Source: an uncultured Myxococcales bacterium (GTDB taxonomy: Bacteria; Myxococcota_A; UBA9042; CAIXZC01). From it: a DNA stretch of 23,252 bases. The position numbers and the translations under genes are program-made. Numbering within the stretch: the first letter of the stretch is position 1; each line of letters starts with the position of its first letter. The stretch is taken from positions 1 to 23,252 of the forward strand of contig CAZVFX010000112.1 of the NCBI GenBank assembly GCA_964626565.1, in the 5' to 3' direction. Shown here one piece after another: positions 60 to 14,528 of the stretch. A model generated the notes under the pieces. It ran no database searches. It saw nothing but the letters and a program-made list of their open reading frames with translations, and was not told the DNA's origin.

Positions 60-2624
60 CTACTCGCACACCTTGAACAGGGTGACGGAGGAACCCGTAT
101 GGCCGGCCAAAACCAGGCTGGTGCCGTCGGGGGAGATGTCCATGCCTCGAGGGTTGAGGAAAGCCAGGTCGGGTGTTCCGGCTAGACCGCCCTGGCCGAA
201 TGCCAGCAGTGACAACTCGTTGGTCAGCGGATCCCGCGCAACCTGTGCGAGATACTTGCTGTCCACCAAATACAGCTGTCTGCCATCAGGCGAGTAGAGC
301 GCAATCTGCAAGGGACGACTGATGGCGGCGCCGTCGTACAACTGGCCTATGGTCGCCAGGTCCAGAGACTTCATGTTGCTCAGCACACCGTCGGGCTCCC
401 GGTCGAACACCACTGACGCATTGTCCCCCCCCCAATATCCGTCCTGCCCGGGAGCGCTGGTAGTGGCGAGCACCGCAAGCTGCCGTCCATCGGGCGAAAT
501 GGCAAGCCAATCGACTCGGCGGTCCGCACCGTAGAAACCTGCACCCGCCTCACCGGGGCTTGCAGGAACGGAGGTTACTACGTGGCCATCCTCATCCAGT
601 TCCAATAGCTCGAGTACTGGTGTTTCCGATTCCTCGTTGCCACCCGGCTCATCAACTCTCCCCCCAAGGTACGCAGTCAAACCATCGGGGGATACCGCTA
701 TCGCTTCCGTCTCCATCGTGTCCGGCAAAGGATATGCCTGGACGCCTGCCAACACCCCGTTTCCCACGGTCCGGTCGAACACTAACACGCTGCGACCGAA
801 GCCTGGCATCAGGCCGGCCGCGTACAGCCTCGCACCGTCGGGAGCAAGGGCAATGCTCGGGTCGTTAAGTCTCCCAGGGGGGATGTCTCCCGTGTCGAGA
901 CAATCCTCGACCTCAAGTTGCCACTTGCCTTCGGGACCCTCAGCGAAATAGGAAGCCACAATTTTTGGTTCGCAATCCTGACAATCCTGCAGAGTGTACA
1001 AAGCGTCCTTGGCCTGAGTCATGACCGGTTTGCCGTCAGTTGGCGGCCCAACCAGTGTCTCTGCCACCGATAGCTCGCCGCCGTCCCCGGTGCTCTCGAG
1101 TTGCACCATCGTCGATTCCGGTGATTCCGCTCCCCCTTTCCACGCTGACACGAGAGCACCACCATCATTGAGGGCAAAAACGTGCTTGGGCTCAAACAGA
1201 CCCTCCACCCCCTCGCCATCACCGTGACCGGCGAGGTCTGAGAGGGCCAGCGAGCCGGCGTCTCCGACTTCGAGAAATGCCACCTGCTCATCATGGGTGA
1301 CGAACCGGGTGCCTGACGAATCGACGGCGAGTTGGCCATCGCCGGGGAAGGTATTGAAGAACCAGAAGGTATCGGTCTCAGCTCCAATATTCAGGTGCGA
1401 AGCATACTCGATCTCCCCGCTGGCGGGGTCCCGATCAAGATAGAGTATGTAGTCGTCCATCATCGTCATGACCAACCCGGCGCCGTCGGCTACAATAGCG
1501 ACATCGTAGAGCACCGACCAACCTTCGAGCCCCAACTCCGGCGCTATCTGCTCAGACGAGAACACGTCGATAATTTCCAGCGCGCCGGATTCCGGATCTA
1601 CCGAAAACACGAGCACTGCCGCCATTGTCAAGAGATACGCACTCTCTCCATCCGGGGCGAAATACATGGGACCGCTCGGTTGAAGGTCCCCCACGCCCGC
1701 GACGGGCATCTCATCGACAGATTCCAAGTCGCCGGTCTGAGTGTCGAGTGAGAAGATGCGGATGCCAACGTCGCCCCAGAAGTTCTCGGGCCAAGCGTAA
1801 ACGTGCCGTCCATCAGGGGACAGGGCCGCCCGCGACCAATCCCCCAGGCCGCCGAACAAGTCCTCATCCTCCAGGGGGTAGCAGGCCAACTGCTGCACCT
1901 GCCCCGTGGCGATGTCCCTCGAGAACACCGACACCACCTCGTAATGTCGCAGGAAAAGTACCCCGTCGTCGTCACCCGACCAGATACCTTGCACGTACCC
2001 TCCGTGGACGTCACCGCAGTCAGGCTCAACAAACCAGTCAAGCTCCAAGGAGCCGTTAGAGTCGGAAGCAAAGGCGGTCAACCCTTCATTCGACCCGACC
2101 AGAACCTGGCTGCCATCCTTGCTCACCCAGATGTCCTGGGGCCAGGCCAGGGTATCCACTCCGTCGAAGCCGTCCCTAAAAGTCTGCAGGTGCTGAGCCT
2201 CACCAGTATCGGGAGACCAGTGCAGCACGGTCAGCGTGTGATCCCAGGAGGTCACGTACACAGTTTCCCCGTCAGGAGAGATGCCCACTTCGTACGGCCA
2301 GTCCATGCCGTCTATGCCTCCCTGCCCGTCGAAGATCGTGCCGACTGGTTCCAGCGGGACCGGCGTGCACATTGCGGGTAGCACTTCGGGAAGGAAGGCT
2401 GCATCGCCTGCGGCATCGTCTTCGACCAGTTCTTCTCCCGCGGGGAGGTCAGCCGGGGGAAGCTCTGCTGCCGCGTCCTTGACCTCCCCGGGGCCCACGT
2501 CACCAACGACGTCGCCGCTCGCGTCTGTAGCTGCGTTGCGCTTACTTCCGCTGCACGCACACAGGACAAAGACCAGGAAGACCACGGTGAAAGAGAGAAG
2601 GTACTTCACCCCGGGTGCTCTCAT
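60..2624 (-). CDS. Secreted beta-propeller repeat lipoprotein (YVTN/PD40/lactonase-like blades), 854 aa
   Basis: Signal peptide with lipobox-like FVLCAC|SG. At least 8 repeats of the [ILV]SPDG..(Y|L)(V|L) blade motif (ISPDGETVYVTS, LSPDGRHVYAW, APDGESAYLL, LAPDGARLYAAG, VSPDGLTAYLGG, ISPDGRQLAVLA, YSPDGRQLYLVD, ISPDGTSLVLAG). AGGAG RBS 7 nt upstream of the ATG. Stop TAG at 60-62. Confidence 0.7.
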   Translation of the reverse strand: MRAPGVKYLLSFTVVFLVFVLCACSGSKRNAATDASGDVVGDVGPGEVKDAAAELPPADLPAGEELVEDDAAGDAAFLPEVLPAMCTPVPLEPVGTIFDGQGGIDGMDWPYEVGISPDGETVYVTSWDHTLTVLHWSPDTGEAQHLQTFRDGFDGVDTLAWPQDIWVSKDGSQVLVGSNEGLTAFASDSNGSLELDWFVEPDCGDVHGGYVQGIWSGDDDGVLFLRHYEVVSVFSRDIATGQVQQLACYPLEDEDLFGGLGDWSRAALSPDGRHVYAWPENFWGDVGIRIFSLDTQTGDLESVDEMPVAGVGDLQPSGPMYFAPDGESAYLLTMAAVLVFSVDPESGALEIIDVFSSEQIAPELGLEGWSVLYDVAIVADGAGLVMTMMDDYILYLDRDPASGEIEYASHLNIGAETDTFWFFNTFPGDGQLAVDSSGTRFVTHDEQVAFLEVGDAGSLALSDLAGHGDGEGVEGLFEPKHVFALNDGGALVSAWKGGAESPESTMVQLESTGDGGELSVAETLVGPPTDGKPVMTQAKDALYTLQDCQDCEPKIVASYFAEGPEGKWQLEVEDCLDTGDIPPGRLNDPSIALAPDGARLYAAGLMPGFGRSVLVFDRTVGNGVLAGVQAYPLPDTMETEAIAVSPDGLTAYLGGRVDEPGGNEESETPVLELLELDEDGHVVTSVPASPGEAGAGFYGADRRVDWLAISPDGRQLAVLATTSAPGQDGYWGGDNASVVFDREPDGVLSNMKSLDLATIGQLYDGAAISRPLQIALYSPDGRQLYLVDSKYLAQVARDPLTNELSLLAFGQGGLAGTPDLAFLNPRGMDISPDGTSLVLAGHTGSSVTLFKVCE
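425..433. repeat. Homopolymeric C9 tract (G9 on the coding strand) inside the beta-propeller lipoprotein CDS, encoding W-G-G
   Basis: ttgtCCCCCCCCCaatat. The coding strand reads tgg ggg ggg gac. It is the longest homopolymer in the window. Confidence 0.9.
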
Positions 2625-2660
2625 GTTCGCGCTCCTGCTTAAGATTCATTGGCTATTGTG

Positions 2661-2690
2661 AGTATAGCTAAAATGACGGGAGGCGTTCAA
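2661..2690 (-). promoter_or_regulatory. Candidate sigma70-type promoter for the beta-propeller lipoprotein gene (-35 TTGAAC, 18 nt spacer, -10 TATACT on the - strand)
   Basis: - strand reads TTGAAC gcctcccgtcattttagc TATACT about 35 nt upstream of the RBS/ATG at 2624. It lies in the only AT-rich stretch of the 232-nt intergenic region. Confidence 0.35.
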
Positions 2691-2856
2691 GGACCCGCAC
2701 TTGCGAAGAGCGTGGAAGAGGCGGTGTAGGCCCCGAGGGAGAGTTTCCCAGCCATGGAAGAGGTCCCTCCATCTCCTACGGTGAGGCCAATCCAGGTGCG
2801 AAGATCGTTGCGTCGGGGATGTCGGGATGACAGTTCGGATGGAAAATGATCGGGGT

Positions 2857-3780
2857 TCAGCCGGCTTGCCAGCCGAAACGGACTTCCACCGGGACGTGGT
2901 CGGAGAGGTTGTCGCCGTCGGCGTCGATGAAGTGGTCGGGGACGGACCAGGTGAGAGGAGTAAGGGTGACACTTTCGGAACTGCGGAACAAGATGCGATC
3001 GATGCGCTCGTCGCCGCATTCCAAGTGCCGGCACGAGTCGGTCAGACCGGCTTCGTCCAGCAACTTATCGAGCACCACCATGTCCTCGGGGCGTTTGGCC
3101 TTCAAGTTGGTGTCGCCGCCAATTATTATGGCTGCTTCCGGCGTGTTAAGTTCAATATCCTCAAGTAATTGTTCAATCTGTGCCTGCCGCGCCAGGGCGT
3201 CCTCTTCAGCCCCGCCGGCATCCATGTGGAGGTTGTACACGACCACCTCGATACCGAGCGCCAAAGCTGTCGCCGAACGCGAAAACCCTTTCGATGTCAG
3301 GCAGTCACCGCCGTCGTCGAAAACGCCGTAGCACACTTCCCACGCATGCCGCTCAACGGGAAGAAAAGGGAAGATGGAAAACCGGTTCAAGCCGTCTCCC
3401 AGGTCCTTTACTGCTTCAGCCGGAATCGACTGGTGCGGCAGCGTAACTTCGGCGGCCAGCTCCTCGTGGTACGCGAAGTCCTCCTGCACCAGCACCAGGT
3501 CGTAGGCGTTGAGCAACGGCCCGACCATGGGAATGTGCTGCTCCGGATTCTCATCGGTGAATTCGTCGGGAAGGCCCGCCACATTGTAGATGAGCATCAA
3601 GAACTCACCTTCAGCCGGCTCCGGCTCCGGCGCCAGTTCGGTTGCCTCTTCTACCGATGCATCCTGCATATCCTGTGAAAGCGGCAGTTCCGACGCAACT
3701 TCCCCTACCCCTTCGGGAGTGCCGGTCGAGCCGGTGCAGCTACAAGCCAGCAGCACAACGACTGCCAGTGCCTGGCGCAC
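2857..3780 (-). CDS. Endonuclease/exonuclease/phosphatase (EEP, DNase I-like fold) family lipoprotein, 307 aa
   Basis: Lipoprotein signal VVLLACSC. EEP motifs LMLIYNVAG (N-terminal catalytic strand), LVLVQE, GGDTN and the C-terminal LSDHVPVEV (SDHxPV). GTG start overlaps the serC TAG stop by 1 nt (TAGTG). Confidence 0.8.
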   Translation of the reverse strand: MRQALAVVVLLACSCTGSTGTPEGVGEVASELPLSQDMQDASVEEATELAPEPEPAEGEFLMLIYNVAGLPDEFTDENPEQHIPMVGPLLNAYDLVLVQEDFAYHEELAAEVTLPHQSIPAEAVKDLGDGLNRFSIFPFLPVERHAWEVCYGVFDDGGDCLTSKGFSRSATALALGIEVVVYNLHMDAGGAEEDALARQAQIEQLLEDIELNTPEAAIIIGGDTNLKAKRPEDMVVLDKLLDEAGLTDSCRHLECGDERIDRILFRSSESVTLTPLTWSVPDHFIDADGDNLSDHVPVEVRFGWQAG

Positions 3781-4865
3781 TAGCCGTGCCGGGCCATAAA
3801 CTGGCCCATGAAGTCAGCCAACGCCTTACACCCTTCCTCGGGCATGGCGTTGTAGGTCGACGCCCGACAGCCGCCGACGCTGCGATGGCCCTTGAGTCCG
3901 ATCATACCCTCGCCGAGGGCCTCCGCGATGAACAGCTTCTCCAACTCTTCGGTGGGAAGCCGCCACACGATGTTCATGAGGGAGCGGAACTCAGTGGGAA
4001 CCGGGCAACGATAGAAGCCGTTGCTCGTGTCCATGGCGCCGTATATGTGCTGAGCCTTGCGCTCATTGATCCGGGCCATGCCTTCCAGCCCGCCATTGGC
4101 CTTCAGCCACTTCATGACTTTGCCGAATGCCCAAATGGCAAATACGGGCGGCGTGTTGTAGAGCGAGTTCTTCGGCCCGTGAATCTTGTAGCTCATGTAC
4201 GCGGTGAGATCGTCGGAGCAGCTTGCCAACAGGTCGTTGCGCATAATCACCAGCGCCATCCCCGCAGGCCCCAGGTTCTTCTGGGCCCCGGCATAGATGA
4301 CACCGAACTTCTCCACCGGCAACGGCCGGCTGAGCGCGTCGCTGGACATGTCCGCGACCATGGGCATGTCGCCGACTTCCGGCCACTCGTGCCACTGCAC
4401 TCCACCGATGGTTTCGTTGGAGGTGACGTGGAGATAGGCCGAATCCGCGTTCAAGGTCAAATCGTTCTTTCCCGGCAGCCGCGTAAAGGAGTCTGCTTCG
4501 CCGTCGAACACCACGTTCACTTTGCCGAGTTTCACCGCGTCGTTGTACGCCTTCTTCGCCCACACACCGGTGAGCGTGAAGTCGCACGACTTGCCGCCGT
4601 GGAGCAGGTTCATGGGCAGCATGGTGAACTGCATGGTGGCGCCGCCCTGAAGCAGCATCACCGTGTAGTCGTCGCCGACTCCCAACAGCTCCTTGACCAG
4701 CGAGATCGCCTCGTTGTGAACCTGGTCGTACTCTTTGCTCCGGTGACTGGTTTCCACCAGGGACAGTCCCATTCCGTGGTAGTCGAGAAACTCTTCCTTC
4801 AGCTCCTCCAGAACCGCGTAGGGCAGCGTAGCCGGGCCCGCGTAAAAATTGTATTTTCTGCTCAT
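3780..4865 (-). CDS. serC: Phosphoserine aminotransferase
   Basis: Full-length collinear similarity to SerC: YNFYAGPATLP, GVIYAGAQKNLGPAG, KWLKANGG, LKGHRSVGGCRASTYNAMP. 361 aa. Confidence 0.95.
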   Translation of the reverse strand: MSRKYNFYAGPATLPYAVLEELKEEFLDYHGMGLSLVETSHRSKEYDQVHNEAISLVKELLGVGDDYTVMLLQGGATMQFTMLPMNLLHGGKSCDFTLTGVWAKKAYNDAVKLGKVNVVFDGEADSFTRLPGKNDLTLNADSAYLHVTSNETIGGVQWHEWPEVGDMPMVADMSSDALSRPLPVEKFGVIYAGAQKNLGPAGMALVIMRNDLLASCSDDLTAYMSYKIHGPKNSLYNTPPVFAIWAFGKVMKWLKANGGLEGMARINERKAQHIYGAMDTSNGFYRCPVPTEFRSLMNIVWRLPTEELEKLFIAEALGEGMIGLKGHRSVGGCRASTYNAMPEEGCKALADFMGQFMARHG

Positions 4866-5749
4866 GTTTTCACCTCCCCCATGAACTCACCGATAATTTC
4901 CTTTACCTCGTCTCCAATACGCCCCAGGTTCTCTTTGCTGCTGGCGCCCAGGTGCGGAACCATGATCACATTTGGTGCCGACAGAATCGGATAGTCGTCA
5001 GGCGGAGGGTCGGAAGGCCACACGTCGGTGGCGTAGGTTTTTACCCGCCCGCTCACCAAAGCTGCCACCATGTCATCAGCATCTACGCACAAGCCCCGCC
5101 CTGTGTTTACCACCACTACGCCTTCTTTCATCACGTCAATAACCGACGCGTTGATCATGCCGCGGGTTTCGTCGGTAAGCGGGGTGTGCAGCGACACGTA
5201 ATCCGCACCACTGACCGCGTCTGCCAGAGTCGGCTTCATCTCGGCTACGCCGCTCGATTCCACGTACGGGTCGAAGGCTTGAACCTTCATGCCGAAAGCC
5301 GCGGCACGGACCGCCACCACCTGCGCGATGTTACCGATGCCCACAAGGCAGAGGGTCTTGCCGAAAAGCTCGGTGCGCTTGAGCTGCTTCTTCAGCCATT
5401 TCCCCTCTTTCATGCCCTCGTGCCCCGGAACGATGTTGTTGGGTGCTGCCAGCATCAGGGCAAAGGCCAACTCACCAACCGCGATGGAAGGGGCCTTGGG
5501 CGTATTGCGAACCTGGATCCCCTTTTCAGCCGCGTACGGCTTGTCGATGTTGTCGGTACCCACGCCGCCCCTGACTATCAACTTCAGGTTGGGTGCGCTG
5601 TCGATATATTCTCTCGTCGCCTTGGTCTTGGAGCGGATGAGCACAACGTCCGCCTCCGCCAGCCGCCCTTTGTCGTCGGTTACCTCGCCAAACTCAGCCA
5701 GCTTGGCCGGCAAGCCGGAATCAAACGCATCAGAAATCAAGATGAGCAT
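4862..5749 (-). CDS. serA: D-3-phosphoglycerate dehydrogenase, short form without ACT domain (D-isomer-specific 2-hydroxyacid dehydrogenase family)
   Basis: NAD-binding Rossmann motif LVGIGNIAQVVA, catalytic-domain motifs VVNTGRG and MVPHLGASS. Stop overlaps the serC start (ATGA). Sits directly upstream of serC in the same operon. Confidence 0.8.
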   Translation of the reverse strand: MLILISDAFDSGLPAKLAEFGEVTDDKGRLAEADVVLIRSKTKATREYIDSAPNLKLIVRGGVGTDNIDKPYAAEKGIQVRNTPKAPSIAVGELAFALMLAAPNNIVPGHEGMKEGKWLKKQLKRTELFGKTLCLVGIGNIAQVVAVRAAAFGMKVQAFDPYVESSGVAEMKPTLADAVSGADYVSLHTPLTDETRGMINASVIDVMKEGVVVVNTGRGLCVDADDMVAALVSGRVKTYATDVWPSDPPPDDYPILSAPNVIMVPHLGASSKENLGRIGDEVKEIIGEFMGEVKT

Positions 5750-5773
5750 GTCACTCCCCCGTGTGTGTATGGG

Positions 5774-7009
5774 TCAAAACTCCCGAACCACCATTCCCGA
5801 TCTCAGCTTGGGCTCAAACCAGGTGGATTTCGGCGGCATCACATTGCCGGTATCAGCAATCGCTATGAGCTCTCCCACCGAGGTGGGATACAGTGAAAAT
5901 GCGACTTTCATGTCGATCCCGCATCGCCGCTCCAGCTCCTTGGTGCCGCGAATGCCGCCGATGAAGTCGATGCGGGTGTCGGTGCGAGGATCTTCGATGC
6001 CCAGAATCGGCTTCAGCAGGTTCTCCTGGAGAATCGACACATCCAGACTAAGCACCGGGTCACCCTCCGGGAAGCTACCTTCCCTTGCCGTGAGGCGATA
6101 CCACCGTCCATCCAGGAACATGCCGAAGCAACGACGCCGGTCCGGAGGCCCGGAAAGGTCGCCTCCGATCTCGAAGTATTTACCCGTCAGTGAGAGGAAT
6201 TGATCCTTGCTGTGTCCGTTGAGGTCCTTCACCGCCCGGTAGTACCCCATAATCTGAAGCTGATCATCGGGAAACGCTACTCCGAGGAAGAAGTTGTAGG
6301 GCTCATTACCGACATGGGCCGGGTTCTGTGCGGCCTTGCGGTCGGCAACCCGGGTGGCGGCCGCGCTACGATGATGCCCGTCGGCGATGTAGAGTGCGTC
6401 CACCTCACCGAACAGCTTCTGAAGCCGGGCCACATCATCTTCGCCGCACATCGCCCACATGGCGTGGGCAATGCCATCGGCCGCAGTGAAATCGTACACC
6501 GGGTCGTTGGCGGCCATGTAGGAAGCGATGAACCGATCGATATCCGCCGAAGCCTTGTAGGTGAGCATCACCGGCCCGGTCTGCGCGCTGAGGTACTCCA
6601 CGTGGCGCGCCCGGTCGTCTTCCTTGTCGGGCCTGGTGAATTCATGCTTCTTGATGAGACCGTCCCGGTATTCGTCACAACTGGCGCCCAGCATCACGCC
6701 GATCTGTTTATGGCCGTCCATGATGAGTTGATAGATGTAGAAGCAGGGATTCTCGTCCCGAATGAGCGCTTCCTGCGTTTCGAGGGCCTTGAGGTTTTCG
6801 AGGCTCTTCGCATATACCGGCTCGCCATGCACGTCGACGCCGGGGTCGAGATCGATTTCGGCTTTGACCACTCTGAGGAAGCTGAGCGGATTCCCCTTGG
6901 CCATCTCCCTGGCTTCACCGGAATTCATCACGTCGTACGGTGGACTGGCAACCTGCTCTACAACTTCCGGTCGGGGTCTTAGACCTTTGAAGGGGGATAC
7001 GTTGGACAT
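5774..7009 (-). CDS. DUF1015 (COG4198) family protein, conserved unknown function
   Basis: N-terminus MSNVSPFKGLRPRPE...ASPPYDV is typical of DUF1015. Start assigned to the ATG at 7009 because a GAGGTG RBS lies 5 nt upstream; the ORF tool's TTG at 7033 is less likely. GGGGGAG RBS for serA follows 24 nt downstream of its stop. Confidence 0.75.
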   Translation of the reverse strand: MSNVSPFKGLRPRPEVVEQVASPPYDVMNSGEAREMAKGNPLSFLRVVKAEIDLDPGVDVHGEPVYAKSLENLKALETQEALIRDENPCFYIYQLIMDGHKQIGVMLGASCDEYRDGLIKKHEFTRPDKEDDRARHVEYLSAQTGPVMLTYKASADIDRFIASYMAANDPVYDFTAADGIAHAMWAMCGEDDVARLQKLFGEVDALYIADGHHRSAAATRVADRKAAQNPAHVGNEPYNFFLGVAFPDDQLQIMGYYRAVKDLNGHSKDQFLSLTGKYFEIGGDLSGPPDRRRCFGMFLDGRWYRLTAREGSFPEGDPVLSLDVSILQENLLKPILGIEDPRTDTRIDFIGGIRGTKELERRCGIDMKVAFSLYPTSVGELIAIADTGNVMPPKSTWFEPKLRSGMVVREF

Positions 7010-7195: not shown

Positions 7196-8764
7196 ATGTT
7201 GTCGAGTCCTAGCAGAGCGAGGTGGGTCTTCGTGGTCTGCCTTTGCGCGGGCCTGGCAGGGATGTTGGTTTCGCACCCCGAGTCCCATGCCGCACGAATC
7301 AAATTCGGCCCGCTGGAAGTGGAGACCGACGACGTCGCACCCGCGGAAGAAGACCCCGCGGCAACACCGGACGCTCCGTCAGAAACGGAAGAAGCCCCGA
7401 CCCCTCCCCCGGAATTGAAGAGTGAATCTCCCAAACCGCTGGACTTCGGCGGCGGCGAAGGCAAGATCGTCTACCACGCGCATCTTACCGACGTTGTGGA
7501 CCTGGGCATAGCCCCGTTTCTGGAGCGCGTCATTGCGGATGCTGAGGACGCGGGGGCAGCGGTACTGGTAGTGGAAATCGACACTCCGGGCGGCAGGGTG
7601 GATGCCGCGGTGCAGATCAAGGATGTACTGCTGGAAAGCAAGATTCCCACTATCGCGTTTATCAACAAACAAGCCATATCAGCCGGTGCGCTCATCGCTC
7701 TGGCTCACGACTACATTGTCTGGTCCACCGGCGGAACCATGGGCGCGGCGACACCGATCCAGATGGGTGGCGGCGGCGGAGCCGAGCCGGTCGAAGAGAA
7801 GATGGTTTCCTACATGCGTGGCGTGATGAGTGCCACCGCGGAAGCCAAGGGAAGGGACGGATTCGTGGCCACCGCAATGGTGGATGACACCATCGACCTG
7901 CCCGAATTCGCGCCGGAAGGCCAGCTTCTGACTTCCACTTTCACGCAGGCTGAAGCGCTGGGGCTGCTGGATGGCAGAGCCGATAGCTTTGAGGAGCTGC
8001 TGGCCACCTGCAACCTCACCGGCGCCGAAGTGATTGAGCCCGAGGTCAACTGGGCGGAGAAAATCGCCCGCTTCCTGACCCACCCCATCGTCAGTTCCCT
8101 GCTCATGACCATCGGCATGCTGGGGATCCTCATGGAGCTCTACAGCCCCGGTTTCGGCATTACCGGTATCATCGGGCTGTTGTCGCTGCTCCTCTTCTTC
8201 GGTGGCCACATGATCGTGCACATCGCAGGGATCGAGGAGATCGCTCTGTTCCTGCTGGGAATCGTGCTGATAATTGTCGAAGTGGCGGTGATTCCGGGCT
8301 TTGGATTTGTTGGCGTAGCCGGCGCGCTGGCCATCGCAGTGAGTATGATCCTGGCCCTCGTAGGGATACGTGTGGACATCGCGTGGGCTTCCGGGCTGCT
8401 CGTCCGGGCACTGGGCCAGTTCTCCATTGCAGTTGTCCTCACCGCAGTGACAATGATCCTTGGGGTTCGATTCCTGCCCTCGGTAGGGCCCGTGCGCGGC
8501 CTCATCCTCACCAGTTCACTCAGGAAAGAGGACGGGTTCATTGCGACGGACCCCAAAATCAGCGACGCCTTACTGGGTCTCACAGGTGTCGCGCTCACCG
8601 ACCTGCGCCCCGGCGGCAAGGCACGCCTTGACGGCAAGAAGGTCGATGTGGCGGCATATGGCGAGTTCATCACCCGCGGCGAGCAGGTGAAAGTGATCGA
8701 GGTTGATGGACCCAGCGTAACGGTCGAGCGTTTGGGCGATGGCGGAGGTGACGATGCTGAGTGA
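7196..8764 (+). CDS. NfeD-like membrane-bound ClpP-class serine protease, long form (YqeZ-like)
   Basis: Signal/TM segment, acidic Pro-rich linker, then a ClpP/NfeD protease core (LVVEIDTPGGRVDAAVQI, FINKQAISAGALIAL), multiple TM helices and a C-terminal OB-fold beta domain. GGAGG RBS 5 nt upstream of the ATG at 7196; the ORF-track TTG at 7172 is rejected. Confidence 0.85.
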   Translation: MLSSPSRARWVFVVCLCAGLAGMLVSHPESHAARIKFGPLEVETDDVAPAEEDPAATPDAPSETEEAPTPPPELKSESPKPLDFGGGEGKIVYHAHLTDVVDLGIAPFLERVIADAEDAGAAVLVVEIDTPGGRVDAAVQIKDVLLESKIPTIAFINKQAISAGALIALAHDYIVWSTGGTMGAATPIQMGGGGGAEPVEEKMVSYMRGVMSATAEAKGRDGFVATAMVDDTIDLPEFAPEGQLLTSTFTQAEALGLLDGRADSFEELLATCNLTGAEVIEPEVNWAEKIARFLTHPIVSSLLMTIGMLGILMELYSPGFGITGIIGLLSLLLFFGGHMIVHIAGIEEIALFLLGIVLIIVEVAVIPGFGFVGVAGALAIAVSMILALVGIRVDIAWASGLLVRALGQFSIAVVLTAVTMILGVRFLPSVGPVRGLILTSSLRKEDGFIATDPKISDALLGLTGVALTDLRPGGKARLDGKKVDVAAYGEFITRGEQVKVIEVDGPSVTVERLGDGGGDDAE

Positions 8765-9245
8765 GGTAATCGTACCCCTGGTCTGTATGGTGTTGGGGTT
8801 GGCGCTCATATTCATCGAGATCGCCATCGTGCCCGGCTTCGGGCTGGTGGGCATCGCGGGAGGCGTTCTGCTGGTCGGCGGTGCGATAGTGGTTTGGAGC
8901 ACTGCGGGAGCTGCCTGGGGATTGGCGTCTCTGCTGGTAGCCTGCCCGTTGTTCGTGGCCGCCCTCTGGATCTTTTTCAAGAGCGGCGCGTCCAACCGCC
9001 TGGTTCAGCATGAGAAGATAACCGGCGATTCGTCCGCGGTCGCGGAATTGACGTTCCTCTCCGGTCGAACGGGCGTGGCAAAGTCACCGCTTCGGCCGTC
9101 GGGCATAGCGGAAATTGAAGGCAAACGATACGATGTCGTAACCGACGGCGGCGAGTACGTCGAGAAAGGCGAGGCCGTCGTGGTTGTGCGCATCGACACA
9201 AACAGCATAGTTGTAGAGATAACTGAAATCAACGCGGAGGGTTGA
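8754..9245 (+). CDS. NfeD short form (membrane anchor plus OB-fold), YuaF/YqfB-like partner of flotillin
   Basis: Two TM helices followed by the C-terminal beta-barrel region [37 protein letters not shown] 5 nt upstream of the ATG at 8754. Overlaps the preceding stop by 11 nt, suggesting translational coupling. Confidence 0.7.
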
Positions 9246-9247
9246 GA

Positions 9248-10243
9248 ATGCTTCTAGCAGCGGGTTTGTTCAAGGGTTCGATGGTCATCGGCATAGTGGT
9301 GGTCGTAGCTCTCATACTTTTCTTCTATTTTGTACCCGTGGGCCTCTGGATCGCAGCCCGCTTTTCCGGTGCGCCGGTGGGCCTCTTCGGGCTCGTCGCC
9401 ATGCGGCTGAGACGAGTTTCCCCCGCCGCGGTGGTCAACCCTCTCATCAACGCGACCAAAGCCGGGCTGGAACTCACCACCAACAACCTCGAGTCCCACT
9501 ATCTGGCGGGCGGTAACGTGGCCGCGGTCATAAATGCGCTTATCTCTGCCAGCAAGGCGAATATCAGTCTTGACTTCAACAAGGCGGCGGCCATCGACCT
9601 GGCTGGACGTGACGTATTCGAAGCGGTGCAGATGAGCGTGAATCCGCGGGTCATCACTACCCCCAAAGTAACGGCCATGGCCAAAGACGGTATCCAGCTC
9701 ACCGCGGTGGCCAGAGTTACCGTGCGGGCCAACATCGACAAGCTGGTCGGTGGTGCGGGTGAAGAGACCATCCTTGCCCGCGTCGGCGAGGGTATCGTCA
9801 CCACCATCGGTTCATCAGCCACTCACAAGGACGTACTGGAGAACCCGGACAGTATCTCAAAGGGCGTACTGCAGAAGGGGCTGGACGCGGGCACCGCATT
9901 CGAGATCCTCTCAATTGACATCGCGGACGTTGACGTGGGCGCCAACGTAGGCGCCAAGCTGCAGACCGAGCAGGCCGAAGCCGACAAGCAGATCGCCCAG
10001 GCCAAGGCAGAGAGCCGCCGGGCCATGGCAGTTGCTGCCGAGCAGGAGATGAAGGCCAAAGTGCAGGAGATGCAGGCCAAAGTGGTGGAAGCCGAAGCCC
10101 AGGTGCCGCTGGCCATGGCCGAAGCTTTCCGCCAGGGCAACCTCGGTGTCATGGACTACGCCAACTTCCGGAACGTGGTGGCGGACACCAAGATGCGGGA
10201 CGGAATCTCGCACATTACCGATGAACCCGACAACACTAAGTAG
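9248..10243 (+). CDS. floA: Flotillin-like protein FloA (SPFH/band-7 family, UPF0365/YqfA)
   Basis: Near-collinear identity to B. subtilis FloA as I remember it: [151 protein letters not shown]; ATG 2 nt after the nfeD-short stop. Confidence 0.9.
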
Positions 10244-11683: not shown

Positions 11684-12820
11684 ATGGACCTCACGTGGGT
11701 AGAGATCTCCCGCCAGAGCCTGGCGCACAACATGAACCAGTTCAGAACCCTTGCGCCCAAGTCGCTGCTGGCCCCTGTCGTCAAGGCCAATGCGTACGGC
11801 CACGGCCTGGTTCCCGTGGCCCGGATCTTATGTGATGAGGGTGCGGATTGGCTATGCGTCAACGCGGTCTACGAAGCCGAGATACTACGCCGGGAAGGAA
11901 TCTCTCTACCGCTCTACCTGCTAGGCTATCTTGCGCCGGGCGACTACGAAGCCGCGGTCGAACTGGGGCTGAAAGTGGTCGCCTATGACCCTGATACGAT
12001 CCATGGACTCGGGAAAGCCGCGGCCGCCAGGGGCGCGACGGTGCCGGTCCACGTGAAAGTTGAAACCGGAAACAACCGGCAAGGTCTGCCGCCGGAGCAA
12101 GCGGTACAGCTCGCCCGGCTCATCGCGACCACTCCGGGAGTCGAATTCGAGGGGCTATCCAGTCACTATGCCGATATTGAAGACACCACCGACCACGCGT
12201 TCGCAAAGGGCCAGCTAGAAGTGTTTCTGAACACCGTCGCCACCCTGGAGCAGCAAGGCGTTCCGGCCAGGGTGAAGAACTTCAGCAATAGCGCGGCCGC
12301 CATCCTCTGGGCCGAGACCCACTTTGACCTCGTACGCGCAGGCATTTCCCTATATGGAATGTGGCCGTCGAAGGAGACGTGCGTGAGCGCGGTCCTGCTC
12401 AACCGGGAGAAGCCGGTGTTGGAACCGGTACTCACGTGGAAGACGGTGGTAGCCCAGGTGAAACAGGTGGCCGCGGGTGAGTTCGTGGGCTACGGCCGCA
12501 CCTTCCGCACGACTCACACCACCCGCCTAGCGGTGCTGCCTATCGGCTACTACGACGGCTACGACCGGGGACTCAGCAACCTCGGGCATGTGCTCATAGA
12601 CGGCCATATCGCGCCGGTGAGAGGACGCGTGTGTATGAATATGGTGATGGTGGACGTATCCGACGTTCCCTCGGTGGAAGCGGGCCGGGAGGTGGTGCTC
12701 CTGGGCCAGAGCCTCGACAAGGCTGTTACCGCGGAGAATATTGCGGATTGGAGCAACACCATCAACTACGAAGTGACCACCCGCATCAACGAGCGCATCC
12801 CCCGCCGGATAGTAGACTAG
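11684..12820 (+). CDS. alr: Alanine racemase
   Basis: PLP-lysine motif VVKANAYGHG near the N-terminus. Length 378 aa. The C-terminal domain ends ...YEVTTRINERIPRR, typical of Alr. GAAGGTG RBS. Confidence 0.9.
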   Translation: MDLTWVEISRQSLAHNMNQFRTLAPKSLLAPVVKANAYGHGLVPVARILCDEGADWLCVNAVYEAEILRREGISLPLYLLGYLAPGDYEAAVELGLKVVAYDPDTIHGLGKAAAARGATVPVHVKVETGNNRQGLPPEQAVQLARLIATTPGVEFEGLSSHYADIEDTTDHAFAKGQLEVFLNTVATLEQQGVPARVKNFSNSAAAILWAETHFDLVRAGISLYGMWPSKETCVSAVLLNREKPVLEPVLTWKTVVAQVKQVAAGEFVGYGRTFRTTHTTRLAVLPIGYYDGYDRGLSNLGHVLIDGHIAPVRGRVCMNMVMVDVSDVPSVEAGREVVLLGQSLDKAVTAENIADWSNTINYEVTTRINERIPRRIVD

Positions 12821-12852
12821 AGAGACGAACGGGCCGCCTCCCCCGGCTGCAC

Positions 12853-12880
12853 TTGACTGTGGCACCCGCATGCCTATCTT
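12853..12880 (+). promoter_or_regulatory. Candidate promoter for the Cys-rich repeat/redoxin gene (-35 TTGACT, 16 nt spacer, -10 TATCTT)
   Basis: TTGACT gtggcacccgcatgcc TATCTT, about 30 nt upstream of the ATG at 12912. Confidence 0.3.
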
Positions 12881-12911
12881 TGTCACAGTAACCTGGATTG
12901 GGAGCATTATT

Positions 12912-14528
12912 ATGAAATCGCAGAAACTCAGAGTACCTCTTCTCGCTTTCGCCCTGCTGGTCAGCGCCGGCTGTTCCGGCACCGGTTCCGACAAAGACGT
13001 TTCGGCGACGCCTGATATGGCGGAAGAGCTGGGCGGTGGCGAGGACCTGGCGTCAACGGACACCCTGGACTCCACCGAACAGGACATGGCGCCGGCGCCT
13101 GATCTGACTGCGGATGTCGCCGACGTACCTGCTCCGGACCTGCTCGATGAGGAGTTGCCCCCGGAAATAGTCCCGGCCGAGGTGCTGGAGGAAATTGAAG
13201 AGACCGCGCCAGAGCTACCGTGCGACGAAACCTGCACCGAATGCGGCGTCGCCAACGGATGCGGCGACATCTGTTTCGGCGATGACCTGTGCGACGATGA
13301 TAACCTCTGCACCACCGACTCCTGCCAACCCGATGAAGGGTGCGTCTTTGCCGCCAACACCATCCCCTGCAATGACGGTGACGCTTGTACCTCAAGCGAC
13401 ACATGCGCCGACGGCGAGTGTGTCGGGGCCTCCCTTGATTGCGACGACGGCAACCCGTGTACCGACGATTCCTGCGATGCTGACTCAGGCTGCGTCTTCG
13501 AGAACAACACGGAACCGTGCGACGACAACAGCGATTGCACTATGGAGGACGTTTGCGATGCCGGAGAATGCATGGGCGCGGGCAGCCTTGAATGTGATGA
13601 CGCCAACCCGTGCACCGTTGACGTCTGTCTGGACGACGGTGGCTGCGAATACGAGCCCGTCGACGGGCCGTGCAGCGATGACGACGTCTGCACCGCCGGC
13701 GACCTCTGCCTGGCGGGCGAATGCGTGCCGGGCGAGCCGGTAGTCTGCAGCGACGACAACCCGTGCACCACCGATTCTTGCGCCCCGGACGCAGGCTGCG
13801 TTTTCACAAACAACGACTCCGCGTGCAGCGATGCCAACCCGTGCACACTGGCCGACGCCTGCCTGGACGGCGCGTGCGTCGGCGAGCCGGTTGAGTGCGC
13901 CCCGGGCGAATACTGCCTCGACGGCGCTTGTGTCTGCGCAGACCCCTGCGGCGAAGCAGAGTGCGGCGAGGACGCGTGTGGGAGTTCTTGCGGTGTGTGC
14001 GGAGATGGACTCGCTTGCGTCGATGGGACGTGCGTTGAGGCCGGCCCCGAATGCCCGCCGCCGCCACCGTACGGTACGAGTATCGGCAAGACTCTCCCCA
14101 ACGCAACGCTCCTCGATTGCGACGGAGTTGAGTACTCCATCCACGATCTCTGCCCCTCCAAAGCGGCGTGGATATTTCTGTATACAGGATGGTGATATAG
14201 CTGCAAGATGACCGTCAGTTCGACGGCCGAGCCTGTATATCAGAACTACAAGGACCAGGGATTCCAAGCGTACATCGTGCTGCTGGAGGACGCCACCGGC
14301 GCACCGGCAACCGCAGAATTGTGTACAGCCATCCGTGATCAGAACGGGCTCACCATGCCGGTTCTCTACGATCCCGACGCAGTTATACCCTACAACCTCA
14401 ACCTCGTCGGCGGTCCCGCAAACGACTACAGCATCATGATCGATGAGGGAGGAGTGCTGGAAGGCAAGAAGAAGGGACTAAGCAAGTCGATGCTGGAAAT
14501 GGAGATTGAAATGCTGCTCTCCGATTGA
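12912..14528 (+). CDS. Candidate selenoprotein. Lipoprotein with an acidic linker, four ~50-aa Cys-rich repeats and a C-terminal TlpA/ResA-like thioredoxin-fold domain, translated through the in-frame TGA at 14193-14195 as Sec (active site W-U-Y-S-C)
   Basis: ORFs 12870..14195 and 14208..14528 are in the same frame, separated only by the TGA. The junction reads ...GKTLPNATLLDCDGVEYSIHDLCPSKAAWIFLYTGW-[TGA]-YSCKMTVSS..YQNYKDQGFQAYIVLL..GLTMPVLYDPD..YNL..GPANDYSIMIDEGGVLEGKKKG. This is collinear with the TlpA/ResA/DsbE redoxin fold (G.P.F.L.D..G..v.L.D.KGK.v.lNFWA.WC.PC....P.L...Y..Y...G...v.v.......fv...g..fPvl.D.......Yg....P..flID..G.i), so the TGA falls exactly on the first Cys of the CxxC active site. 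The upstream part alone would lack the second Cys and the downstream part alone would lack the active site. The real start is probably the ATG at 12912 (MKSQKLRVPLLAFALLVSAGC, lipobox) rather than 12870. Confidence 0.55.
14194..14241 (+). promoter_or_regulatory. Bacterial SECIS-like imperfect hairpin immediately 3' of the in-frame UGA
   Basis: Base pairs read by eye. Outer stem 14194-14199 GAUAUA with 14236-14241 UAUAUC; this includes the G and A of the UGA. 14200G-14233C, 14203G-14232C, 14204C-14231G, 14209U-14229G (wobble), 14210G-14228C. Apical stem 14212-14216 CCGUC with 14222-14226 GACGG. Apical loop AGUUC at 14217-14221, which is +24 to +28 from the U of the UGA, and contains a GU. Confidence 0.35.

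Follow-up and report, generated by a model that had tools for sequence, protein, structure and literature searches.

An in-frame UGA, very probably read as selenocysteine, joins two open reading frames into one gene for a lipoprotein redoxin with a Cys-rich array in an uncultured Myxococcales bacterium

Is an in-frame TGA that separates two open reading frames (ORFs) the end of one gene, or is it a codon inside a single longer gene? This question is raised by a stretch of 23,252 nucleotides from an uncultured Myxococcales bacterium (contig CAZVFX010000112.1; hereafter, the window), in which two ORFs of the same frame, 12870..14195 and 14208..14528 on the + strand, are set apart only by the TGA at 14193-14195 plus four sense codons. 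Read through from the ATG at 12912, the junction is ...KAAWIFLYTGW-TGA-YSCKMTVSSTAEPVYQNYKDQGF..., exactly as in a preliminary description made from the sequence alone, which had placed the TGA at the first cysteine (Cys) of a TlpA/ResA-type CxxC motif and had proposed that it encodes selenocysteine (Sec, U). Among bacterial selenoproteins, thioredoxin-fold proteins with a UxxC motif are the most frequent. Judging from comparative sequence evidence, the segment 12912..14528 is very probably one selenoprotein gene, 538 codons long with one of them for Sec, that ends at the TGA 14526-14528 and whose product would be a membrane-anchored, exported ResA/TlpA-type disulfide oxidoreductase.

The TGA lies inside a conserved domain. 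Residues 379-538 (160 aa; 14046..14525, + strand) were recognized by Pfam and by profile searches of the PDB as a ResA/TlpA-type thioredoxin-fold redoxin domain. When the C-terminal 157 residues were compared with Pfam, with Cys substituted at the TGA, both AhpC-TSA (37.4 bits, cut-off 26) and Redoxin (33.4 bits, cut-off 26.6) exceeded their gathering scores, an outcome that the preliminary description had named as a check on its proposal, and the match started well before the TGA and ended well after it. NCBIfam gave weak matches to ResA and StoA, and none of its selenoprotein-specific models matched. The family profile retrieved ResA (E 7e-12), Etrx1/2 (E 3e-11), StoA, DsbE and TlpA from the PDB, with their WCxxC aligned to the W-U-xxC, and the W-U-Y-S-C of the window stood opposite the WCKPC of ResA. 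For the fold, the protein modelled with AlphaFold2 was the Cys-containing homologue P0010 rather than the window protein; P0010 shares 41% identity with the window domain, and its model (pLDDT 93.7) matched ResA best (TM 0.74-0.87), followed by DsbE/CcmG, Etrx2 and SdbA; in this model a helix begins at residue 60, right after C59. A thioredoxin fold with an N-terminal beta-hairpin and a central insert, the WCxxC at its expected position and a lipobox, all features of ResA/TlpA-type proteins, were thus found. Since both the Pfam domain and the ResA alignment cross the TGA, neither half is a fold alone, in agreement with the earlier view that neither would be functional by itself. Moreover, the TGA aligned with the first Cys of the WCxxC in about 180 Cys-containing homologues (for example, P0003), as had been claimed. 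By homologue alignment and conservation, the UGA at 14193..14195 (+ strand) would encode Sec at residue 428, the nucleophilic position of U-Y-S-C, and the TGC at 14202..14204 (+ strand) the resolving Cys431 of the UxxC.

The TGA was conserved in 11 distinct TGA-containing sequences, with the frame open through the full domain. These were found at the loci designated L007, L009 (two paralogues), L010, L011, L012, L015, L051/L052, L053 and L054, where the predicted proteins end exactly at ...GW, small ORFs start just beyond and the DNA reads TGA-xxC; all of them belong to uncultured organisms. The redoxin domains of the six TGA-containing sequences aligned with the window were 45-81% identical to it, and the resolving Cys was kept in 10 of the 11 Sec-type sequences, in a stretch that would be untranslated under a two-gene model. 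L007 is a syntenic orthologue, collinear with the 538-codon gene over its whole length, with 81% identity in the redoxin domain and 74% in the downstream ORF as called. Its comparison with the window pointed to purifying selection on either side of the TGA: the ratio of nonsynonymous to synonymous substitution (dN/dS) was 0.07 over the 50 preceding codons and 0.16 downstream, and the first 12 codons past the TGA were without any synonymous change, while the proportion of synonymous differences (pS) was about 0.6 elsewhere. In the comparison of orthologues advised in the preliminary description, the TGA is kept in diverged relatives, Cys stands in others, and L007 carries no ATG after the TGA.

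Downstream of the UGA, folding and covariation revealed a bacterial hairpin of the Sec insertion sequence (SECIS) type at 14210..14228 (+ strand), which the preliminary description had not mentioned. In the window it consists of a 7-bp stem (14210-14216/14222-14228; five contiguous pairs plus one) and the loop AGUUC (14217-14221), placed 21 nt after the UGA. In all Sec forms the hairpin occupied one register, with the stem at positions 18-24/30-36 counted from the U of UGA, a spacing of 21 nt and 5-nt loops of the sequence AGUUC, GGUUC, GGUCA or GGGUC. Among 10 sequences, 92.9% of the cells were paired in this register versus 13-56% in slid registers, changes on both sides were observed in 5 of the 7 stem pairs, and the covariation score was 0.61 versus 0.34 after shuffling, with 0 of 500 shuffles scoring as high; the same helix was predicted by RNAalifold. 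Bacterial SECIS elements have been described as having a loop of 3-9 nt, with a G within the first two positions followed by U or G, a stem of 4-16 bp and a spacing of 16-37 nt (PMC13188914), and the hairpins found here fall within these limits, with a 5-nt loop (A/G)G(U/G)..., a stem of 5-7 bp and 21 nt of spacing. When it was looked for in four Cys forms, the hairpin was absent. Six of the 10 TGA-containing sequences in the alignment retain the Ser-Ser dicodon AGU-UCG of the loop, although both are minority Ser codons in the window genes (AGU 10%, UCG 22%). In the minimum-free-energy fold, UAUAUCA at 14236..14242 (+ strand) paired with UGAUAUA at 14193-14199, forming a lower stem that encloses the UGA; the fold of 14193-14243 reached -14 kcal/mol (z -1.8), and in L007 this stem was kept by a U-G wobble (-15.1 kcal/mol, z -2.7). 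The lower stem is specific to the lineage of the window and L007 and not family-wide. A covariance model of the hairpin built from ten sequences (R1) and run over 370 kb recovered its training sites and only one other, an untrained site in L009 that scored 30.6 bits and turned out to be a second Sec-type paralogue.

This second L009 paralogue (4340-6125, - strand) lies about 2 kb from the first (8165-9010, + strand) in divergent orientation, and presents a lipobox, eight CGDDGCGGxCGxC modules and the motif YTGW-U-PSC. A truncated copy, identical in three assemblies, was observed at about 4484-5341 (+ strand) of L015 and about 2795-3652 (+ strand) of L017; it keeps ...FAGW-TGA and the hairpin, and reads U-PTR, with Arg for the resolving Cys. 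The N-terminal part with CPP/DCDG/HDLC was absent from every upstream frame, and this copy is probably a relic or pseudogene. The 830-nt contig L011 turns glucose-6-phosphate isomerase-like about 25 codons past the TGA (about 440-830), and is probably a chimeric assembly.

Considering the single frame, the redoxin domain across the UGA, the pairing of Sec and Cys forms, the conserved UGA, the covarying hairpin and the lipoboxes, there are strong grounds to believe that the UGA at 14193-14195 is decoded as Sec by SelB acting on the hairpin, and the rival explanations, each at odds with several separate lines of evidence, have a low probability when taken together. An error of sequencing or assembly, with TGC or TGT as the true codon, found no supporting point and was practically ruled out, because 130 nt around the TGA were identical in six independent assemblies that differ in sample and pipeline (one JGI sample, several from ENA and one Logan run); L007 also has TGA, so that the doubt about the reads voiced at the outset was removed. 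A pseudogene, produced by a nonsense change in the Cys codon of the active site, is extremely unlikely: a single base change from TGC or TGT would suffice, and the L015/L017 copy, without an N-terminal part and with U-PTR, does resemble a decayed gene, but the TGA persists in eleven distinct sequences with intact frames and a downstream dN/dS of 0.16, and a covarying hairpin accompanies every TGA and is absent from the four Cys forms examined. Only slightly more credence is due to the model of two genes, in which the TGA at 14193 is the true stop of a Cys-rich lipoprotein and a small protein starts separately at the ATG 14208, five codons past the TGA. This split is what gene callers annotate, in 7 of the 7 assemblies with both ORFs readable (L001, L002, L005, L007, L010, L051 and L052), the first part as a 'hypothetical protein' rich in Cys and the second as a short orphan ORF. 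Nevertheless, L007 has AAG in place of the ATG 14208, and the called downstream starts vary among all lineages (ATG, or GTG elsewhere); no convincing Shine-Dalgarno sequence precedes 14208; the stretch between TGA and start is conserved and contains the resolving Cys in all but one of the 11 sequences; and the supposed boundary cuts through both the Pfam domain and the ResA alignment.

It is unlikely, too, that the UGA is read as something other than Sec, either by a near-cognate or suppressor tRNA inserting Trp, Cys or Gly or through a reassigned code, a possibility left by the fact that the Sec machinery was not observed in the window and the next 10 kb. Among 15 other genes of the window, 9 end with TAG and 6 with TGA, the recoded gene itself stops at TGA and the G+C content is 60%. 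This composition, combined with TGA stops, is unlike that of the known lineages in which UGA has been reassigned. Since TGA ends 6 of the 15 neighbouring genes, the recoding is site-specific, with no change of code, as the preliminary description had concluded, and a blind scan for further ORF pairs joined by TGA yielded only noise driven by G+C content. Also contrary to a non-Sec reading, the UGA falls exactly on the redox Cys, the spacing and the G-U loop of the hairpin are those of bacterial SECIS elements, and a classical Sec formate dehydrogenase lies on a related contig. This gene, at 667-3750 (- strand) of L015, encodes an FdnG-type enzyme with a twin-arginine (Tat) signal and an in-frame TGA (EHQARN-U-HSATVASL), at which gene callers split it into 189 aa and 821 aa; therefore, the lineage uses Sec. 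Anaeromyxobacter is a myxobacterium. Eleven selenoproteins have been reported in this genus, listed under Deltaproteobacteria (PMC1794560).

Some observations weigh against decoding as Sec in an enzyme of the ResA/TlpA type. The hairpin of the window has only five contiguous pairs, and the energy of its core is unremarkable (z -1.2). A search of Rfam at gathering and permissive thresholds, in the window and around the TGA, gave no match, and therefore a bacterial SECIS of such a type is evidently not modelled there. Neither the window nor the following 10 kb of the 65-kb contig showed selA, selB, selD or tRNA-Sec, ARAGORN detected neither a tRNA nor a tRNA-Sec in the window, and no further selenoprotein gene was seen in the 10 kb beyond it; the Sec competence of the source organism is thus inferred from relatives, namely the FdnG of L015 and Anaeromyxobacter. 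Concerning the enzyme, the cis-Pro position of ResA is occupied in the profile alignment by a nearly invariant Asn (Asn503 in the window, in PANDYS, about 14418-14420; N131 in P0010), placed two residues before the following strand in the sequence alignment, and the cis-Pro was the one family-defining ResA feature tested that was missing. An Asn at this site would be unusual for a CxxC thioredoxin-fold oxidoreductase, and the chemistry of the family may differ from that of classical ResA/TlpA proteins because it replaces the cis-Pro.

The whole product can be followed from the ATG 12912, the likely start, which is also chosen by other gene callers and in the L007 orthologue and is preceded by a Shine-Dalgarno-like GGGAG 7 nt upstream (12900..12904, + strand). 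A lipoprotein signal peptide with the lipobox LVSAG-C21 was predicted at 12912..12974 (+ strand), and a lipobox was likewise present in L007, L009, L012 and L051. It is followed by an acidic, Pro-rich linker of 82 residues (residues 22-103; 12975..13220, + strand) with 25 Asp plus Glu, 1 Lys plus Arg and no Cys, which evolves fast relative to L007 (dN/dS 0.21 and indels). Residues 104-378 (275 aa; 13221..14045, + strand) constitute a Cys-rich array with 48 Cys, 68 Asp plus Glu and no Lys or Arg, made up of eight 4-Cys CxDxNxCTxDxC units, that is, four double repeats, and a terminal CGxDxCGxxCGxC module, and Dicty_CTDC of Pfam was matched in four stretches (E 7e-15). The product contains 54 Cys in total, 52 of them in the upstream ORF, so that the lipobox, acidic linker, four Cys-rich repeats and more than 50 Cys of the preliminary description were all recovered. 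An antisense ORF of 559 aa spans the whole Cys-rich region (12527-14206, - strand), and is apparently no gene but a consequence of the GC-rich repeats.

To place this architecture, 1.84 billion representative sequences were searched with a profile made from a pieced alignment, which produced 790 matches; a second search returned the source-given names 'peroxiredoxin [Bradymonadia bacterium]' and 'redoxin domain-containing protein [Deltaproteobacteria bacterium]' and a protein of a Myxococcales metagenome-assembled genome (MAG). The only taxon labels, borne by Cys-form members and the nearest MAGs of the window, were Myxococcales, Bradymonadia or Deltaproteobacteria. An alignment of the whole family proved too diverse to locate loci, and a narrower one found no more than three Cys forms in the metagenome scan and no relative among the GTDB species representatives. 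A neighbour-joining tree placed L009 and L010 among the Cys forms, and is too weak to discriminate between one and several Cys/Sec switches. The family is marked by the motifs CPPxxPYG, DCDG, H(D/E)LC, (F/Y)xGW-C/U-xxC, YCxxIR and PVLYDP. Four Cys outside the active site were invariant across Sec and Cys forms, C381, C403, C414 and C471 (in CPP, DCDG, DLC and xC..IR; codons 14052-14054, 14118-14120, 14151-14153 and 14322-14324, + strand), and presumably form two structural disulfides.

The N-terminal part, on the other hand, is variable. A lipobox was predicted in 124 of 179 Cys forms, most of which have a leader of less than 120 residues, usually short and acidic; one or more Cys-rich modules were present in 22 of the 179, and a large array (48 Cys) only in P0058. 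Leaders range from short acidic linkers and EEV repeats to one or many modules of two kinds and unrelated domains. The combination of lipoprotein, acidic linker, Cys-rich array and redoxin recurs in the Sec forms of L051/L052 and of the second L009 paralogue and in the Cys form P0058, so that the architecture is not unique, which weakens the earlier claim of novelty for it. Similarly, the comparison lends no support to a redoxin held next to a Cys-rich substrate of its own, most members having only a short acidic leader. Because the array is optional across the family, it is best read as a stalk rather than as the enzyme's own substrate: to judge from the family comparison, it is most likely a rigid module, optional and variable, that serves as a stalk or in adhesion and holds the redoxin in position, and not an obligatory substrate. 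Its dN/dS of 0.13 relative to L007 denotes purifying selection, and therefore a functional array and nothing further. A more ambitious interpretation, which seems rather doubtful, would give the array an active share in a redox machine of the envelope that is complete in itself, and would make the family a mechanistically distinct branch of the thioredoxin fold, for example, peroxidase-like, instead of a ResA/TlpA-type reductase. With the same reserve, the array could then take part in a disulfide/selenenylsulfide relay, or be a metal or selenium store serviced by the tethered Sec-redoxin, and the Asn and the four extra invariant Cys would be marks of that branch.

Under the interpretation preferred here, a recoded ResA/TlpA-type redoxin, the ribosome would reach the UGA at 14193-14195, where the hairpin at 14210-14228 would bring SelB with Sec-tRNA(Sec); Sec would be inserted and translation would run on to the TGA at 14526. 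The prolipoprotein would be cut at Cys21, this residue would be lipidated and the mature protein would remain tethered to a membrane of the cell envelope, displaying the acidic linker, the disulfide-rich array of small 4-Cys modules and the C-terminal redoxin with W-U-Y-S-C. Sec428 would act as an exposed nucleophile attacking a substrate disulfide or another oxidized sulfur, Cys431 would resolve the selenenylsulfide, and the enzyme would be recycled by a DsbD/CcdA-type electron donor in the membrane. In this scheme we infer selenium insertion, the stalk role and the choice of membrane, together with the reductase direction, the electron donor and the substrates, which are proposed by analogy. 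No DsbD/CcdA, cytochrome c or copper maturation genes were found among the genes called around family members in the inspected loci, and the electron-donor partner may be encoded elsewhere.

Concerning the genomic context, the neighbourhoods of family members are not conserved. The window carries an NfeD-NfeD-FloA (flotillin) cluster at 7262-10243, upstream of the gene. Its FloA is 86% identical, and its Alr 57%, to those of an 'uncultured Myxococcales bacterium' MAG, which shares the gene order NfeD-NfeD-FloA-unknown-Alr with the window. Between the window and L007, FloA is 96% identical and the redoxin domain of the selenoprotein only 81%. The surroundings of FloA in 28 related genomes held no family member. 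In L023, the nearest Myxococcales MAG, the place following Alr is taken by a thioredoxin-fold protein that lacks a leader and carries a CRHC motif (13669-14229, + strand); it showed no detectable relationship to the window redoxin (no tblastn match). On the same 65-kb contig as the window, about 5.3-7.2 kb past its right end, an RnfC-like Fe-S flavoprotein gene adjoins a bacterial-microcompartment shell gene (15917-17794 of L021). At 7576-16135 of L012, the Sec-type redoxin gene lies among five genes for B12-binding radical SAM proteins, of which one is upstream and on the other strand and four are downstream; the downstream ones are also present in L013 and L014.

Recognizing the recoding restores an exported redox enzyme from its split annotation and adds a subfamily to the bacterial selenoproteome, and no principle is changed by this finding. 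The covarying SECIS, with its loop (A/G)GUUC 21 nt after the UGA, is a search signature for mining further cases, and its model is usable for this task because it found a paralogue that had been missed. Moreover, the family provides the same lipoprotein redoxin in natural Sec and Cys versions, some bearing large disulfide-rich stalks and others not, as convenient material for studying the advantage of Sec in an extracytoplasmic oxidoreductase.

Among known systems, Prx (peroxiredoxin)-like thiol:disulfide oxidoreductases (PF00578/PF08534, UxxC) were reported as 'Prx-like 1' and 'Prx-like 3' in the GOS (Global Ocean Sampling) survey (PMC2398784) and are listed as selenoproteins 'predicted with high confidence' in a 2026 review (PMC13188914), and the UGC TlpA family is also an established predicted selenoprotein family (PMC2398784; PMC13188914). 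The Prx-like selenoproteins share with the present family the same Pfam families, Sec as the first residue of UxxC, far commoner Cys homologues and a SECIS in the coding region after the UGA. As far as a comparison by description, not with reference sequences, can tell, the present family differs from them in its own signature (CPPxxPYG, DCDG, H(D/E)LC, GW-U-xxC, YCxxIR and PVLYDP), four extra invariant Cys, a lipoprotein anchor, an often present Cys-rich array and the Asn at the cis-Pro position. ResA, TlpA, CcmG/DsbE and StoA are the best matches in sequence and fold, and are likewise membrane-tethered, extracytoplasmic proteins with WCxxC at the N-terminus of helix 1; all of them are Cys enzymes, whereas the protein described here would use Sec as the nucleophile, has a lipid anchor instead of a transmembrane helix, a large Cys-rich N-terminal array and Asn for the cis-Pro, and has no cytochrome-maturation or DsbD/CcdA genes nearby in the inspected loci. 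Etrx1 and Etrx2 of Streptococcus pneumoniae (PDB 2yp6 and 4hqz), also top PDB matches by sequence and fold, are surface-exposed, lipoprotein-anchored ResA-like redoxins; however, they are Cys enzymes of a Gram-positive host, their linkers are short, and they have neither a Cys-rich array nor recoding. The hairpin shares with the bacterial SECIS consensus (bSECISearch; E. coli fdhF/fdnG) a stem-loop right after the UGA, a small loop with an early G followed by U or G and a spacing within 16-37 nt, and differs from it in a short upper stem of 5-7 bp, a family-specific loop (A/G)GUUC and the lack of an Rfam model. By these sequence comparisons, the family is probably a new subfamily within the UxxC redoxin selenoproteins, and its distinctive points are the combination of lipoprotein and Cys-rich array, the four extra invariant Cys and the invariant Asn at the cis-Pro position of ResA.

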